From Burkholderiaceae bacterium (GTDB lineage: Bacteria; Pseudomonadota; Gammaproteobacteria; Burkholderiales; Burkholderiaceae_D), in the NCBI GenBank assembly GCA_034933385.1, contig JAYFNP010000095.1, positions 1 to 28,946 on the forward strand: a DNA stretch of 28,946 nucleotides, given 5' to 3'. Below, one piece after another: positions 1,975 through 26,590 of this stretch. The notes beneath the pieces were generated by a model, which worked only from the letters and a program-made list of their open reading frames with translations, did no database searches and had not been told where the DNA came from. How positions within the stretch are numbered: the first letter of the stretch is position 1; each line of letters opens with the position of its first letter. The position numbers and the translations under genes were made by a program.

Positions 1975-3840
1975 TCAATTATTGACGACCAGTTTTGGTC
2001 CGTCATTCAAAAAACGCTGCCGGATGGCTGTCGCAATGCCGCTGGCGTCCAGTCCGCACATAGCCAGCAGTTGTGTCACATCGCCATGGTCAATGAACCG
2101 GTCAGGCAATCCAAGCTGCAAAAGGGGTTTCTCAATGCCCGCCTCCGCCAGCACTTCCGCCACTGCCGAACCGGCACCACCCATGATGCAACCCTCCTCG
2201 ACGGTTACCAGAGCGTCATGGCTCAATGCCAGTTGGAGTACAAGCTCTTTATCCAGCGGCTTGACGAAGCGCATGTTGGCCACGGTTGCATCCAGCGTTT
2301 CCGCCGCACCAAGCGCAGGAGCGACCATCGTTCCAAAGGCAAAAATCACGACTCCACGGCCAGTGCGGCGAATTTCGCCCTTGCCAATCGGAATGGTATC
2401 CAGATCGCGCTCGACCGCAGCACCGATGCCGGCGCCACGCGGATAACGCACCGAAGCGGGCCCATTATAGTGGAATGCGGTCGAAAGCATCCGGCGACAC
2501 TCGTTTTCATCCGAGGCCGCCATGACGACCATATTGGGTATGCAACGCATGAACGCCATATCGTAGCTGCCGGCATGCGTTGCGCCGTCGGCGCCAACCA
2601 GACCGGAGCGATCGAGCGCAAAGGTGACATCCAGGTTTTGCAATGCAACGTCGTGGATCAATTGGTCATAGGCGCGTTGCAGGAACGTCGAATAAATAGC
2701 CACCACCGGTTTCATGCCTTCGCAGGCGAGACCGGCAGCAAAGGTGACTGCATGCTGTTCGGCAATGCCGACATCGTAATAACGGTCCGGATACTGCTGT
2801 TCGAATTCAACCAGGCCGGAACCTTCACGCATTGCCGGCGTAATGCCTATCAGGCGTTCATCCTGAGCGGCCATGTCGCAAAGCCAGTCGCCAAACACAC
2901 GGGTATAGGTCAATTTTTTGCTGACGGACGGCAGGATGCCCTCGGCCGGACTGAACTTGCCGAGGCCGTGATACAGGATCGGGTCGGCTTCGGCCAATTT
3001 GTAGCCCTGCCCTTTCTTGGTGACCACGTGCAGGAATACCGGCCCCTTGATTTTGCGGATGTTCTGCATGATCGGGATCAGCGCGTTCAAATCGTGACCA
3101 TCGATCGGGCCAAAATACTTGAAACCGAATTCCTCAAATACCGTTGCCGGTGCAATCACCATTTTCGCCTGAGTTTCCAGACGTTTGGCGATGTCGGCCA
3201 CCGGCTTCGGCAGCACGGTTTTGGCGACATTTTTGGCAGCAGCGTAAAACTTGCCGGACATCAGGCGTGAGAAATAGCGGTTGAGCGCACCGACCGGCGG
3301 TGAAATCGACATGTCGTTATCGTTCAGTACCACCAGCAAGTTGATGTCGTCATAAACGCCGGCGTTGTTCAATGCTTCGAAAGCCATGCCGCCGGTAATC
3401 GCACCGTCGCCAATGACTGCGATCGAATGGCGATCTTCGCCTTTGCTCCTGGCAGCCAGCGCCATGCCGAGCGCGGCCGATATCGATGTCGATGAATGGG
3501 CGGTGCCGAATGCGTCGTATTCGCTTTCATCGCGCTTGGGAAAGCCGGACATGCCGCCGATCTGGCGCAAGGTGCGCATCTTCTCGCGACGACCAGTCAG
3601 AATCTTGTGCGGATAGGTTTGATGCCCGACATCCCACAGCAGCCGATCCTCAGGGGTATTGAACACATAATGCAGTGCCACCGTCAGCTCGATCACCCCG
3701 AGGTTGGACGACAAATGTCCACCAGTGCGGGATACCGAGTTCAGCACAAAATCGCGCAATTCATCGGTCAACTGCGCCAACTCGAGTCGCGTCAATTGAC
3801 GCAGATCGGCCGGGCTGTCGATGTCATTCAGCAAACTCAT
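1975..3840 (-). CDS. dxs: 1-deoxy-D-xylulose-5-phosphate synthase
   Basis: From ATG at 3840 ([14 protein letters not shown]): [57 protein letters not shown]. Confidence 0.96.
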
Positions 3841-4986: not shown

Positions 4987-5290
4987 AATCGGCTGGAAAT
5001 TGTGCTCAGGCGGCCATTGTAAAGCAAACAGCTTGTTGGTTTTGGCCGGACGTCAGGCGCAATTAATAGACCCGATGATCCTGCCTCTTGTGGCAAAGCC
5101 ATTTGCACAGCAAGACAAGGGCTGATTTGATGCGGTTGTTCATGATTCAGGTAATTCGTAAAATCCGATATTATAGCGGGCTTTAGTTGGCTATCAGCAA
5201 TAACTAAGGAGTATTATCACCGGTTCCAGCGTTGTCGAGTACTTTTTCCCGACGCCCGTTTTGATTCTACTCTTCTGAACGACACCCTGC

Positions 5291-16974: not shown

Positions 16975-17005
16975 GTCAAATCTCCGAAAAACAGGAAGCT
17001 TGATC

Positions 17006-17266
17006 ATGAAATACAACATGATTGAAGTCGAAGTGAACGAAGAAACTGCGGCAGCACTGGCCGAGCTGGTCAACCGCTGCAACGATTGCAGCGCGATTTG
17101 CGACGGCTTTGCCAGCCACGGCGCGGCTTTCGATGTGGCGACATTGCTGGCGCTGCTGGCCGAAGATGCCGGCAAGATCATCAGCGAGCCGGAATCGTGG
17201 CAAAGCGCGAACATGCGGCAGGTGCTGGCCGGACACGGTTACCTGCTTGGCCGGCTGGTGCAATGA
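17006..17266 (+). CDS. Hypothetical small acidic protein (86 aa)
   Basis: Open frame with a CAGGAAG RBS-like sequence upstream; the stop overlaps the cca start (ATGA). No family recognised. Confidence 0.7.
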   Translation: MKYNMIEVEVNEETAAALAELVNRCNDCSAICDGFASHGAAFDVATLLALLAEDAGKIISEPESWQSANMRQVLAGHGYLLGRLVQ

Positions 17267-18498
17267 AAACCTACGTCGTCGGCGGTGCGGTGCGCGACCG
17301 GCTGCTCGGCTTGCCGGTGCAGGACCGCGATCACGTGGTGGTCGGCGCGACCCCGGAACGACTGGTGGCGCTCGGCTTCACGCCGGTCGGCAAGGATTTC
17401 CCGGTGTTCCTGCATCCGCAAACGCACGAGGAATATGCGCTGGCGCGCACCGAGCGCAGCACTGGCCCGGGTTACAAGGGATTCACCTTCCACACTGCTC
17501 CGGACGTGACGCTGGAAGAGGACTTGATCCGCCGCGACTTGACCATCAATGCAATCGCGCAGGACGAAGACGGCACGCTGGTCGATCCATTTGGCGGGCA
17601 GCGCGATTTGCAGGCCAAACTGTTTCGTCACGTGTCGCCGGCCTTCGCAGAAGACCCGGTGCGGATTTTGCGCGTCGCACGCTTCGCGGCGCGGTTTGCT
17701 GATTTTGCCATCGCGCCGGAAACGCTGGTGTTAATGCGGCAGATGGTCGCCAACGGCGAAGTCGATCATCTGGTGCCGGAACGCGTCTGGCAGGAACTGG
17801 CGCGCGGGCTGATGGAAGCGACGCCGTCGCGGATGTTCGCGGTGCTGCGCGATTGCGGCGCGCTCAAACATATCTTGCCGGAGCTGGATATATTATGGGG
17901 CGTGCCGCAGCCGGAAATCCATCATCCGGAAATCGATACCGGGGTGCATGTGATGCGGGTGCTCGACCTGGCGGCGCAATGCCGGCATCCGCTGCCGGTG
18001 CGTTTCGCCGCGCTGCTGCATGATCTCGGCAAGGGTCAGACACCGCAACAGGAATGGCCGCACCACCACGGCCACGAAGCGCGCGGCGTCCCGCTGGTGG
18101 GCGCGATCTGCGAACGGCTGCGCGTGCCGAACGATTGCCGCGATCTGGCGCTGATGACCGCGCGCGAACATGGCAACATCGGCCGCGGACTGGAAATGCG
18201 CGCCGAAACGATGGTCGCGTTGTTCGAGCGCTGCGACGCGATCCGCCGGCCGGAACGTTTTCTCGACCTGCTGAAAGCCGCCGAATGCGATTTCCGCGGG
18301 CGCAGCAGCCAGGAACGCAGCTTTGCCGACCAGCCCTACCCGCAAGCGGCGCACTGGCAAGCGGCGCTGGCTGCCGCGCGCGGCGTCGATGCCGGTGCGC
18401 TTGCCCAACAGTTTGCCGAGGAACCAAAACGCATCCCGCCGGCGATTCATGCGGCGCGGATTGCCGCAGTCGATGCTGTCCTGTCGCGCGTGAATTGA
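17263..18498 (+). CDS. cca: Multifunctional CCA-adding enzyme / 2',3'-cyclic phosphodiesterase (HD)
   Basis: MKTYVVGGAVRD, DRD, RRDLTIN, EDPVRILR, HHPEIDTGVH, LLHDLGK, HHGHE. Confidence 0.96.
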   Translation: MKTYVVGGAVRDRLLGLPVQDRDHVVVGATPERLVALGFTPVGKDFPVFLHPQTHEEYALARTERSTGPGYKGFTFHTAPDVTLEEDLIRRDLTINAIAQDEDGTLVDPFGGQRDLQAKLFRHVSPAFAEDPVRILRVARFAARFADFAIAPETLVLMRQMVANGEVDHLVPERVWQELARGLMEATPSRMFAVLRDCGALKHILPELDILWGVPQPEIHHPEIDTGVHVMRVLDLAAQCRHPLPVRFAALLHDLGKGQTPQQEWPHHHGHEARGVPLVGAICERLRVPNDCRDLALMTAREHGNIGRGLEMRAETMVALFERCDAIRRPERFLDLLKAAECDFRGRSSQERSFADQPYPQAAHWQAALAAARGVDAGALAQQFAEEPKRIPPAIHAARIAAVDAVLSRVN

Positions 18499-18501
18499 AC
18501 G
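18485..18501 (+). repeat. 17-bp direct repeat, left copy (cca 3' end)
   Basis: CGCGCGTGAATTGAACG, identical to 19186-19202; contains the cca stop codon. Confidence 0.9.
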
Positions 18502-18551
18502 CCCGCTGACAGGTCACTTTGTTGTCATTATTCAAGGATGAAGGAGATGTG

Positions 18552-19199
18552 ATGACCTGGAAAGACGCCGTCATTCGAGCATTAACCAGAATGTCACTGC
18601 GGCATCACAAGAATTTTTTTCGCCGAACGGATATTCTTCGAGAGGAACTTGAAAATATCAAACAGGATACCGGCTCAGTTGGGGCGACACCGGAACAAAC
18701 ATTAAGCAGAGTACTTCAGAATTTGCGCGATGAAGGGTATCTGGATTTTGATGGAAACGGCGGTTATACATTATTGGATAGCGTTTTTACCCCAACATCT
18801 TCAGATATAGCTGAACAGTATCCCGTTCCCGAACGGTCACCAACGACGATTCACAGAATTATCCGGGATTCTAAAATTGTTTCAGAACTAAAAAGGTTGT
18901 ACTCCTTCAGGTGCCAGATTTGCGAAGTCAGGCTCGAACTGCCATCCGGATTTTACTGTGAAGCCCATCATTTGAAGCCTTTGGGCGCTGCGCATAATGG
19001 GCCCGATGTCAAAAGCAACCTTATCATCGTGTGTCCGAACCACCATGTGATGCTGGATTATGGGTCGATAGAATTGAACGAATCCATTCTGAAGCTGGAT
19101 AAGCACTTGATCGATCAAGAGTTTTACGATTATCACAATAAGAACATCTTTCGGGCTGAGCACATGACAGACATCGCCTTGCCGCCGCGCGTGAATTGA
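18552..19199 (+). CDS. Winged-helix (DpnI-C-like) - HNH endonuclease, putative type IV modification-dependent restriction enzyme
   Basis: AAGGAG RBS at 18541-18546. C-terminal HNH: RD...LY..RCQIC...EAHH..P...NLIIVCPNHH. N-terminal TWKDAV...TLSRVLQNLRDEGYLDFDGNGGYTL resembles the DpnI winged-helix C-terminus. Visibly AT-rich. Confidence 0.8.
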   Translation: MTWKDAVIRALTRMSLRHHKNFFRRTDILREELENIKQDTGSVGATPEQTLSRVLQNLRDEGYLDFDGNGGYTLLDSVFTPTSSDIAEQYPVPERSPTTIHRIIRDSKIVSELKRLYSFRCQICEVRLELPSGFYCEAHHLKPLGAAHNGPDVKSNLIIVCPNHHVMLDYGSIELNESILKLDKHLIDQEFYDYHNKNIFRAEHMTDIALPPRVN

Positions 19200-19202
19200 A
19201 CG
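19186..19202 (+). repeat. 17-bp direct repeat, right copy
   Basis: CGCGCGTGAATTGAACG; supplies the RVN-stop end of the HNH gene. Confidence 0.9.
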
Positions 19203-19299
19203 TTCGCGCCAGCCGATTTTCCGGGAAAGTTGACCTCCGACAAGGGTAATTCCCCGGTTCGGGGCATAATCTAGCTGAAGCTTTCTTAACCCATTCGAA

Positions 19300-19980
19300 A
19301 TGACACGCATGGACGACAAGCCCAGACCGGACGACAAGCCCATCGTTTTCATCAAGGAATTGACCGAGCGCGACCGGCCGTACCTGCTGAACCACTTCAA
19401 GACGCTGGATGCGAACGACCGTTTCCTGCGTTTCGGCAGCGTAGTCACCGACGAGGCGATCGCGCGTTACGTCGATGGCATCGATTTCACCCAGGACACG
19501 ATGTTCGGCGTCTATGAAAGCACCAACAACATGGTCGGCGTCGGCCATCTGTCGATTGCCCGACCGGAATCGCTGCCGGTGCTGGAAGGCTGCGCCCGGC
19601 GGGAAAGCATCGCCGAGTTCGGCGTGTCGGTGCTGGCGGCGGCGCGGCGGATGAATGTCGGCACCCGGTTATTCGAGCGGGCGGTGGTGCATTGCCGCAA
19701 CAAGAATGTCGATACGATGTACATCCATTGTCTGGCGTCGAACAAGCCGATGCTGTGCATTGCGCACAAGGCCGGCATGGAAATCCACCGTGATCACGGC
19801 GAGGTGGATGGCTACCTGAAACTGCCCGATCCGAACCGCGCAACGCTGCTGCACGAGGCGGTCGAGGAACGGGCGGCAACGCTGAACTACGCATTGAATG
19901 GCAAGTTCAAGGTGTCGATCGACTGGTTCCGCAACCTGTTCCACGCGAAATTGAACAGCCATCCGGAAAATAAGGACTAA
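19300..19980 (+). CDS. GNAT family N-acetyltransferase
   Basis: DRFLRFG, AEFGVSVLAAARRMNVGTRL (acetyl-CoA motif A-like), and C...NKPM..IAHKAGM. Confidence 0.85.
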   Translation: MTRMDDKPRPDDKPIVFIKELTERDRPYLLNHFKTLDANDRFLRFGSVVTDEAIARYVDGIDFTQDTMFGVYESTNNMVGVGHLSIARPESLPVLEGCARRESIAEFGVSVLAAARRMNVGTRLFERAVVHCRNKNVDTMYIHCLASNKPMLCIAHKAGMEIHRDHGEVDGYLKLPDPNRATLLHEAVEERAATLNYALNGKFKVSIDWFRNLFHAKLNSHPENKD

Positions 19981-20052
19981 TAAATACCTCTAGGAGTATT
20001 TATGGCGGGCCAGGAAAAACGCGGCCCAATCCCGGTTTTCCCGCTATACCCC
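19980..20052 (-). repeat. Conserved ~75-bp intergenic element, copy F
   Basis: Minus strand: GGGGTATA from 20052, AAAA +12, GGCC +25..28, TAAATAC-TCCTAGAG-GTATTTA with right arm at +64 (one base shorter than the consensus). Confidence 0.75.
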
Positions 20053-20529
20053 GGCAATAATGCGGTGCGGCAATTGCAGGATCGCTTCGGCGTTGGACGA
20101 CGAAAAGCAGCGGTCAGCCGCTTCGCGGTACGGCAGCCAGACATGGTGCAGGTGTTCGCGCGGCGCCAGCACCACCGGCACCGTGCGCGGCACCAGCAGG
20201 CCGAACACATGTTCGGTATTGCGCACCACGCCCGGCGCGTAGCGGTGGCGCCAGGTCGGGTAGATTTCGTAACTGTTGGTCAGTTGCCAGTCGTGCAGGT
20301 TGGCCAGCGGAACTTCGCTGCCGGTCGACGCACCGCGGGCGACAATGCGGATGCCGGTTTCTTCCTGCACTTCACGCTTGGCCGTTTCCGGCAGCGGTTC
20401 ATCCAGGCTGTTTCTTGAGCCGGTGACCGATTGCCAGAAGCCGGGCTTGTCGGCACGCTCAATCAGCAGCACCTCCAGCTCGACGGTGTGGATCACTACC
20501 AGGACCGATTCGGGGATTTTGTAGGCCAT
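20044..20529 (-). CDS. nudB: Dihydroneopterin triphosphate diphosphatase (Nudix)
   Basis: YKIPESVLVVIHT, WQSVTGS, Nudix box AKREVQEETGI, YAPGV..NTEHVF, SSSNAEAI; follows aspS as usual. Confidence 0.93.
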   Translation of the reverse strand: MAYKIPESVLVVIHTVELEVLLIERADKPGFWQSVTGSRNSLDEPLPETAKREVQEETGIRIVARGASTGSEVPLANLHDWQLTNSYEIYPTWRHRYAPGVVRNTEHVFGLLVPRTVPVVLAPREHLHHVWLPYREAADRCFSSSNAEAILQLPHRIIAGV

Positions 20530-25024: not shown

Positions 25025-26590
25025 TCAGAACAAATGACGCAGGCTGGCTAACAACCGGATAATCAGAATGCCTGCCAGCAGGCCACCGCCGAAATAGATG
25101 ATTGCGCCGAGCCGGCGGTTGATACGCCGTTGTTCGTCCAGCATAGTTTGCAACTGGCCGTTGTCTGGCACTGGCGGTGTTGCGTGATGGTTCAGCGCCT
25201 GATGAATCAGGCGCGGCAGTTGCGGCAGCAATTGGCTGTAACGCGGTGCTTCCGCTCTCAGCCGTTCGAGTAGTCCGCGCCAGCCGATTTGCTGCTTCAT
25301 CCAGTTTTCCAGAAAAGGCTTGGCAGTTGTCCACAGGTCGAGATTCGGATCGAGCTGCCGCCCCAGGCCTTCAATATTGAACAGGGTTTTTTGCAGCAGT
25401 ACCAGTTGCGGCTGGATTTCGATGTTGAAGCGACGCGAAGTCTGGAACAGCCGCAATAGCACCTGTGCAAATGAAATATCTTTCAGCGGCCGGTCGAACA
25501 CCGGTTCGCAGCAGGCGCGCACTGCGCCTTCCAGTTCGTCGACGCGGGTATTCTTTGGCGCCCAGCCGGATTCGATATGTATTTCGGCAACGCGCTTGTA
25601 GTCGCGGCGGAAAAAAGCAATCAGGTTTTGCGCCAAGTAATTTTTGTCTAAATCGCTCAGCATGCCGACGATGCCGAAATCGAGTGCGATGTAGCGGCCG
25701 AAAGTCGCTGGCTCGGCCGACACCATGATATTGCCGGGATGCATGTCGGCATGGAAGAAACCGTCGCGAAAGACTTGCGTCAGGAAAATTTCGACGCCAT
25801 GGCGCGACAATTGGCACACATCGACGCCGGCAGCAATCAGCTGGTCGCGTTGCGAGATTGGAATGCCGCGCATCCGCTCCATCACGATCACGCTGGTCGT
25901 GCAGAATTCCCAGATCATTTCCGGCACCAGCAGCAGTTCGGAACCGGCAAAATTGCGGCGCAACTGGCTGCCGTTGGCCGCTTCGCGCAGCAAGTCGAGT
26001 TCGTCGTGCAGGATATGGTCGAATTCGGCAATGACTTGTTTCGGCTTCAGCCGCCGACCATCGATCCACAGCCGTTCGACCCAGCCGGCAGCCAGATGCA
26101 TCAATGCCAGATCGTTGTCGATCAACCGCTCGACGCCAGGGCGCAAGACCTTGACCGCGACTTCGCGGCCATCCTTGAGTACTGCGAAATGTACTTGCGC
26201 GATCGAGGCGGACGCCACCGGTTCACGTTCGAAGTGTGCAAACAACTGCTCCGGCGGCGCCCCCAGCGCCTGAGTAATTTGCATGATGGCCAGACGGGAA
26301 TCGAATGGTGGCACCTGATCCTGCAGCTTGGCCAGTTCGTCGGCGATGTCGGTCGGCAGCAAGTCGCGCCGGGTGGACAGCACTTGCCCGAATTTGACGA
26401 AGATCGGCCCGAGGTTTTCCAGCGCACGCCGCAGTCGTTCGCCGCGTGGTGCTAGTGGCCGGTGCCAGACGAACAATGCTTTGGCCAGTCCGATAAAGCC
26501 GGCAGCGACCGGCCCCGGCGAGGCGAATTCATCCAGTCCGTAGCGCAACGCGATGCGCGCGATTTTCAGCAAGCGGAACAGTTTACGCAT
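25025..26590 (-). CDS. ubiB: Ubiquinone biosynthesis kinase-like protein UbiB
   Basis: [51 protein letters not shown]; start at ATG 26590 (MRKLFRL). Confidence 0.95.

Follow-up and report, generated by a model that had tools for sequence, protein, structure and literature searches.

A one-gene nuclease islet bracketed by a 17-bp direct repeat at the 3' end of cca in a groundwater Burkholderiales bacterium

The islet between cca and the acetyltransferase gene

The window analysed here is the whole stretch of 28,946 nucleotides of contig JAYFNP010000095.1 (assembly GCA_034933385.1) from a Burkholderiaceae bacterium, and its source DNA is groundwater metagenomes. In this window, a gene coding for a winged-helix–HNH (wH-HNH) nuclease lies between cca, which codes for the multifunctional CCA-adding enzyme, and the gene of a GNAT acetyltransferase (Table 1). 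The nuclease gene is carried by a foreign segment bracketed by two perfect copies of the 17-mer CGCGCGTGAATTGAACG, exactly 701 bp apart. This islet is a real and well delimited feature, and it is probably a new, unusually small case of a published pattern of insertion with target duplication. A first-pass annotation of the window had described a perfect 17-bp direct repeat around an AT-rich gene equipped with its own AAGGAG ribosome-binding site, and the coordinates, the GC content and independently assembled contigs all agree with this description.

The cca open reading frame (ORF) ends with ...LSRVN-TGA in the left copy of the repeat and the HNH ORF ends with ...LPPRVN-TGA in the right copy. 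Since the inserted ORF runs in frame into the right copy, both proteins terminate in RVN, a reading of the junctions already present in the first-pass annotation and matched by the ORF translations. With up to two mismatches allowed, the chance expectation for CGCGCGTGAATTGAACG is 0.07 matches, and no further copy beyond these two was found in the whole assembly (1.91 Mb, 389 contigs). The identity between the two copies extends to 20 of 22 bases at most. A longer, diverged duplication around the 17-mer was sought and ruled out by the 15-30 nt on each side, whose similarity stays at shuffle level (p 0.2-0.6).

The significance of the repeat stems from its placement and not from the mere existence of a repeated 17-mer. 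Exact 17-mer repeats are not rare by themselves, as 31 of 300 Markov shuffles of the 29-kb window contained one somewhere. Its two copies coincide with both compositional boundaries of the insert. The GC content is 0.453 in the insert, 0.654 in cca, 0.593 in the GNAT gene and about 62% in the flanks. At third codon positions (GC3) it amounts to 0.495 in the HNH gene, against 0.759 in cca and 0.811 in the GNAT gene. The pair was compared with the exact direct-repeat pairs of at least 14 bp and 200-8000 bp spacing in the whole assembly (200 pairs). It encloses the most AT-shifted DNA of all, with a GC difference to its flanks of -0.169; the next pair reaches -0.068 (standard deviation 0.031).

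Two potential hairpins are located at the junctions. The one formed by GCGTGAAT and GTTCGCGC around the loop TGAAC is presumably native to the site, as predicted from the folding of the right junction and of the reconstructed empty site. The duplicated 17 bp span from 3 nt 5' of its stem to the first base of the 3' arm. The other one, at 18480-18513 of the window, comprises about 12 bp and surrounds the cca stop: CCTGTCGCG, the end of cca, pairs with CGC-T-GACAGG at the start of the insert. It involves the first 12 nt of the insert together with the cca end and is present only in the occupied state. Rfam and transfer RNA (tRNA) scans of the region returned no match. The final 10 nt of the repeat, GAATTGAACG, are present a third time, without mismatch, within the HNH gene at 19071-19080, in another frame (codons ELNE). 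This copy is compatible with no junction model and is treated as a coding-sequence coincidence.

The duplication is not an assembly artefact, its junctions being present in contigs from three groundwater samples. A Logan contig of the source run, assembled independently, matches positions 17000-20500 with zero differences. In a second sample, contigs span both the left junction (17000-18618) and the right junction (18891-20500), and in a third sample one contig spans the left junction. Neither a joint skipping the insert nor an excision joint was found in the Logan contigs of 4 runs, which drop rare variants.

Table 1. Features of the cca–GNAT region, in window coordinates
Feature	Coordinates	Strand	Evidence or remark
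cca, multifunctional CCA-adding enzyme, intact	17266..18498	+	Pfam PolyA_pol, PolyA_pol_RNAbd, HD; last 14 bases including the stop lie inside the left repeat
Left 17-bp repeat copy	18485..18501	.	Includes the cca stop, TGA 18496-18498
Inserted foreign segment	18502..19185	+	684 bp, 45.3% GC; not at the empty sites of L068, G006 and G004
AAGGAG ribosome-binding site	18541..18546	+	5 nt ahead of the ATG at 18552; Methyloprofundus DNA homology begins here
wH-HNH nuclease gene, 215 aa, candidate modification-dependent (type IV) restriction endonuclease	18552..19199	+	Pfam HNH_2; AlphaFold (AF2) model, mean confidence (pLDDT) 91; Foldseek; profile search against the PDB
N-terminal winged-helix domain, residues 1-76, DpnI-C-like	18552..18779	+	Secondary structure H-E-H-H-E-E; DpnI superposition
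HNH domain, CxxC...CPNHH zinc and catalytic motif	18870..19151	+	All family-invariant residues kept
GC-rich insert end coding the extra tail TDIALPP	19162..19185	+	Resembles an inverted copy of cca 18463-18484
Right 17-bp repeat copy	19186..19202	.	Gives the HNH ORF its RVN-stop
Hairpin, presumably native to the site (GCGTGAAT / loop TGAAC / GTTCGCGC)	19189..19208	+	Right repeat and right flank; ViennaRNA folding of the right junction and the reconstructed empty site
Native cca–GNAT spacer	19207..19299	+	Homology to the 87% relative L068 resumes at CGCCAGCCGATTTTCC
GNAT acetyltransferase gene, native downstream neighbour of cca	19300..19980	+	Pfam Acetyltransf_1; adjoins cca in relatives

Empty sites in relatives and origin of the nuclease gene

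The cca homologues are named from Burkholderiaceae, Noviherbaspirillum, Herbaspirillum and Undibacterium, among others. In the three closest relatives, two genomes of the same genus (G006 and G004, 80-84% nucleotide identity, cca 84% and 83% identical) and the metagenomic contig L068 (cca 87% identical), cca is directly followed by the GNAT gene, with a spacer of 100-150 nt that does not contain the HNH gene. The homology to L068 restarts 5 nt right of the right repeat, at CGCCAGCCGATTTTCC (score 36, 0/2000 shuffles). Among relatives, the start of the spacer is hypervariable, like the C-terminal tail of the cca product past AARVAAV. The first-pass annotation had suggested that aligned cca–GNAT junctions might reveal an empty site with a single 17-mer, and other cargos. 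The aligned junctions are indeed empty of the HNH gene; no single 17-mer and no defence cargo were seen in them. The same annotation had counted as contrary to its reading relatives that all carry the HNH gene here without the repeat, or a duplication created by the assembly; relatives lacking the gene at this site were found, and independent contigs carry the duplication.

The proposal that the cca 3' end is a defence hotspot is not supported: in the sampled relatives, this site harbours nothing or ordinary genes, namely a DAHL-GGDEF cyclase gene or a gene coding for a periplasmic binding protein. Three genera of the family with larger genomes (L033, L034 and L035, i.e. G022, G019 and G010) have the DAHL-GGDEF diguanylate cyclase gene in the cca–GNAT interval, from which it is missing in the small-genome genus of the window. 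In the genome of the window itself, no other cassette with the same ends and no other AT-rich islet bracketed by repeats was detected.

Judged by sequence comparison, the islet is foreign and was horizontally acquired. The nearest homologue of its gene is encoded by the gammaproteobacterial methanotroph Methyloprofundus sedimenti (74% amino acid and about 76% nucleotide identity). The alignment of the two DNAs is limited to the ribosome-binding site and the ORF, from AAGGA at 18541 to about 19159. Further homologues were identified in Oceanithermus, in Chthoniobacteraceae and on many metagenomic contigs. No phage homologue was found, and plasmids and one viral contig gave only distant matches to the HNH domain. 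Searches with the nuclease gene as query detected no copy in 149 of 150 sampled genomes of the family nor in 400 of 400 genomes of the phylum.

Repeats also lie near two of the homologues. In Methyloprofundus sedimenti (L023), 100-nt repeats resembling miniature inverted-repeat transposable elements (2988-3087 and 5137-5236, 97% identity, inverted termini) enclose two genes next to an IS1595 transposase, one coding for an uncharacterised 198-aa protein and the other for the closest HNH homologue. In L029, a ParE/antitoxin pair is enclosed by a 143-nt direct repeat (1784-1926 and 2516-2658, 86% identity) that duplicates the 3' end of a transketolase gene. This is a clear islet with a long target duplication beside a member of the family, as a low-GC wH-HNH homologue follows 83 nt past it.

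A candidate modification-dependent nuclease

The N-terminal 95 residues of the protein give winged-helix matches in Pfam below cut-off only (DpnI_C, E=0.01; HTH_Crp_2, E=3e-4). The AlphaFold model, built with 59 homologues, is of high confidence except for residues 201-215, where the score drops to about 60. Searched against the PDB with Foldseek, this model retrieves TagI, EcoKMcrA and ScoMcrA as top matches through the HNH domain, with 32% identity over 109 aligned positions and a root-mean-square deviation (rmsd) of 1.6 Å for the HNH domain of TagI. The winged-helix chains of DpnI (4kyw and 4esj) are aligned over 54 residues with an rmsd of 1.5-1.6 Å and 25-26% identity. A profile of the family retrieves TagI (3e-26), McrA (4e-6), ScoMcrA (5e-5) and VcaM4I (5e-3) from the PDB, all four of which are modification-dependent nucleases.

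The protein therefore has the domain order of the wH-HNH fusions, a group of N6-methyladenine (6mA)-dependent type IV restriction enzymes of 224-283 aa (Helbrecht 2024, PMC11037411). As in DpnI and these enzymes, it comprises an N-terminal winged helix that superposes on that of DpnI and a C-terminal McrA-type HNH domain, and it is encoded by a stand-alone gene without methyltransferase. It departs from them by its length of 215 aa, by the weak sequence similarity of its winged helix (the DpnI_C match given above) and by a specificity that is predicted only. TagI, EcoKMcrA and ScoMcrA (PDB 6ghs, 6ghc and 5zmm) have the HNH domain in common with it but a different reader: an SRA, McrA-NTD or sulfur-binding domain (SBD) in place of the winged helix. 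In the protein of the window, the winged helix would recognise modified DNA, with 6mA as the most likely mark, and the McrA/TagI-type HNH domain would cut nearby. Only about 10% of wH-HNH fusions carry the 6mA/GATC motif, and specificity is uncertain for those without the DpnI motif (PMC11037411).

The genomic context was considered as well. No methyltransferase gene was found next to the nuclease gene, whose neighbours are cca and the GNAT gene, nor in nine contexts of homologues. These contexts are neighbourhoods with toxin-antitoxin genes, a transposase or a second HNH gene, or solitary islets between housekeeping genes. A search for the Dam family (PF02086) found no gene in the genome, which is 84% complete; this fits tolerance of a putative 6mA-dependent enzyme by the host. 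Since no sigma-70-like promoter or terminator was found between cca and the HNH gene, the latter is probably co-transcribed with cca by read-through.

The C-terminal end of the nuclease bears the trace of its junction. Homologues end 4-16 residues past the conserved YHN, while the protein of the window continues for 19. Its last four codons come from the repeat and the preceding eight lie in a 61%-GC stretch (19158-19185), which has no homology to the Methyloprofundus gene and none that is clear to the native spacer. A tail made of native post-cca spacer was considered and dropped, as the comparison with L068 was only marginal (3.4% of shuffles). The junction-derived tail proposed in the first-pass annotation is supported because it is longer than in homologues, because the homology to Methyloprofundus DNA stops at about 19159 and because it is modelled with low confidence. 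The GC-rich end of the insert also resembles, in inverted orientation, the 22 nt immediately preceding the left repeat, where cca encodes AAVDAVL, with 19/22 matches and two 1-nt gaps. The p-value of this match is about 0.004 with shuffled sequences and about 0.013 with random genomic 41-mers, uncorrected for 12 comparisons. This inverted match is suggestive only; it may represent templated filler added when the islet was inserted.

Insertion of the islet downstream of cca

Restriction genes inserted with target duplication and without any mobility gene were described earlier (Nobusato et al. 2000; PMC2853133). Furuta, Abe and Kobayashi (2010, PMC2853133) sorted repeat-flanked restriction genes into three classes: site-specific recombination, long target duplication without mobility gene, and chance. 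Their examples include, from Burkholderia sp. 383, a solitary short mcrA/HNH type IV gene inserted by itself between target duplications, and fusions of ORFs that arise from target duplication (PMC2853133). The cca islet resembles the second class in several respects. It is a lone restriction-type nuclease gene of foreign composition in a betaproteobacterium, its direct repeats are probably made from the target, and the inserted ORF is fused to what would be the duplicated target. Its insert is also below 20 kb (684 bp, one ORF), with no integrase, transposase or other mobility gene. In the published cases, the repeats exceed 30 bp (65 to about 420 bp) and their copies usually differ slightly (PMC2853133), whereas that of the islet is perfect and of 17 bp only, short of the 30-bp criterion. 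The unit is also very small, and empty sites exist in L068, G006 and G004 but with an unalignable 17-mer region.

The reading favoured here, cargo identity included, is a probable one: the horizontal acquisition of a promoterless fragment and its recombinase-free insertion with target duplication. A promoterless 684-bp fragment with little beyond a ribosome-binding site and one gene would have entered a small-genome groundwater Burkholderiales bacterium. It would have inserted immediately 3' of cca with the duplication of 17 bp of the target, which comprise the end of the cca coding sequence with its stop codon and, from the hairpin, the 5' arm and the loop. The target before insertion would have been a single 17-mer joined to TTCGCGCCAGCC. 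In such a scheme cca keeps its own end, and the incoming ORF, having lost its own stop, would terminate in the second copy. The insertion most likely occurred without a dedicated recombinase, by a break-repair type of 'insertion with target duplication' as for restriction genes. The enzyme would then restrict modified phage or plasmid DNA and spare a host that is without that modification. As the first-pass annotation stated, no integrase is present: no recombinase is encoded in the insert and no tyrosine recombinase (PF00589) on the contig. The ends of the insert are unique in the genome, with no conserved element ends and no terminal inverted repeats (score 14, p=0.07).

A parallel is found in Oceanithermus profundus (CP002361, L027). 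A homologue of about 50% amino acid identity lies there in a 771-bp segment with a GC content of 0.42 in a context of 0.715, between a PHO4 phosphate transporter gene and an asparaginase gene. These two genes are adjacent, and the site empty, in the relatives L072 and L075, whose PHO4 genes are 95% and 90% identical. The islet is bracketed by the 11-bp GAGGCCAAAGC (L027 2902-2912 and 3684-3694), the left copy of which overlaps the PHO4 stop. This 11-mer counts only because it is placed at both homology boundaries. The inverted copy described above for the cca islet does not recur. In the Oceanithermus sp. relative L072 (4210-5298), a Fic-domain gene that is not in O. profundus follows the asparaginase gene, and this neighbourhood thus varies at more than one place.

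Several observations speak against an insertion with target duplication or against the predicted cargo. With its 17 bp, the repeat is under the 30-bp cut of the published class and within the range that its authors give to site-specific recombination. No relative shows the 17-mer, and the region is not alignable at 83-87% cca identity in any of them, so that the target duplication is deduced from geometry and not seen. In Oceanithermus, an 11-mer such as GAGGCCAAAGC arises in 18% of control window pairs, which is not significant alone, and no bracketing repeat was found at six other homologue loci. As to the cargo, its 215 aa are below the range of wH-HNH enzymes, and its modification dependence is a prediction from fold, profile and stand-alone context.

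The same repeats could be read as attL and attR of an element targeting the cca 3' end by means of a tyrosine or serine recombinase. The islet would then be a decayed remnant, or a unit comparable to cis-mobilizable elements (CIMEs) that an integrase encoded elsewhere could mobilise, and its attP junction would be ...TTGCCGC-17-mer-CCCGCTGACAGG... A length of 17 bp is typical for an att core, integrases commonly insert at the 3' ends of conserved genes and rebuild the end of the gene from the core, other contigs of the genome carry six tyrosine-recombinase genes, and repeats shorter than 30 bp are placed in the site-specific class by Furuta et al. (PMC2853133). Against this stands the lack of any integrase in or near the islet, and for a remnant, the deletions would have had to spare both cores and precisely one complete ORF. 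The direct B/P or dyad half-site similarity expected beside the cores is also lacking. A pattern search (22-mer with YY, and 17-mer) of metagenome, genome and viral contigs gave 14 + 2 + 4 matches, all unrelated, which consist of one conserved coding motif (...ARELNVRF...) and scattered chance matches; no attP or attB with this core was detected in these collections. The search for the 17-mer proposed in the first-pass annotation was thus negative, both for another copy in the genome and for related matches in the collections. CIMEs at the 3' ends of conserved genes similarly have short direct repeats around a cargo and leave the housekeeping gene intact, but the islet shows no sign of a parent element, of an attP, of another cargo at the site in relatives or of an excision joint in the contigs of 4 runs. 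This explanation is possible but unlikely. The minimal attL/attR-like insertion of the first-pass annotation accordingly holds as a foreign single-gene insertion with an intact cca; for its att nature, no recombinase was found in the insert, no tyrosine recombinase on the contig, and no attP, attB or excision joint in the collections and contigs searched.

In a Campbell-type single crossover, a circular foreign fragment of about 700 bp sharing the 17-mer would have recombined with the chromosome at this place. This yields exactly the observed topology, with an HNH ORF already read through the 17-mer in the circle, and the chance that a 700-bp fragment and a 2-Mb genome have an exact 17-mer in common is roughly 10% by an estimate from k-mer space. 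Yet 17 bp is under the usual minimal length for efficient RecA recombination, the shared 17-mer would have to sit exactly between the end and the start of the ORF in the circle and, in the chromosome, where an insertion does no harm, and the Oceanithermus parallel is left unexplained; such a crossover is decidedly improbable. Still more remote, to the point of being hardly credible, is a gene that is ancestral at the locus, lost in relatives and flanked by a chance repeat, or a duplication produced by the assembly. Exact 17-mer repeats do occur in about 10% of shuffled windows, but the gene has a GC3 of 0.50 where its neighbours have 0.76-0.81, it went undetected in the samples of the family and phylum, the pair is an extreme outlier among the 200 repeat pairs of the genome, and independent contigs from three samples confirm the junctions. 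An insertion sequence or transposon with target-site duplication is not supported, since there are no significant terminal inverted repeats and one ORF only, nor is a free-standing homing endonuclease gene, as the sites of the sampled relatives are empty and no phage homologue was found.

A bolder version of recombinase-free insertion regards the wH-HNH gene itself as a minimal one-gene mobile element. The promoterless ORF would be captured in sense orientation at the stop-codon/terminator hairpin of an expressed gene, after a staggered cut by its own nuclease or a break in the host. This would leave short variable duplications (17 bp at cca, 11 bp at the PHO4 stop), with the inverted cca copy as templated filler. 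It is considered improbable.

Under the favoured reading of target duplication without recombinase, the islet would be a compact record of a defence gene entering a reduced genome without mobility machinery. It spares the essential cca, would borrow its transcription and would owe the stop codon of its own gene to the target duplication. Alongside the Oceanithermus islet, it would extend the range of 'insertion with target duplication' towards short repeats, and it supplies a small candidate methyladenine-dependent restriction enzyme.

Two minor features of the surrounding DNA complete the description. The 15-mer CGCGCCAGCCGATTT, at 19205-19219 just right of the right repeat, occurs again at 25276-25290 in a coding region 6 kb downstream, which is at chance level. 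Between 16900 and 17100 of the window, the GC content falls to 0.475 in the spacer that separates a lytic transglycosylase gene from a conserved 86-aa ORF overlapping the cca start.

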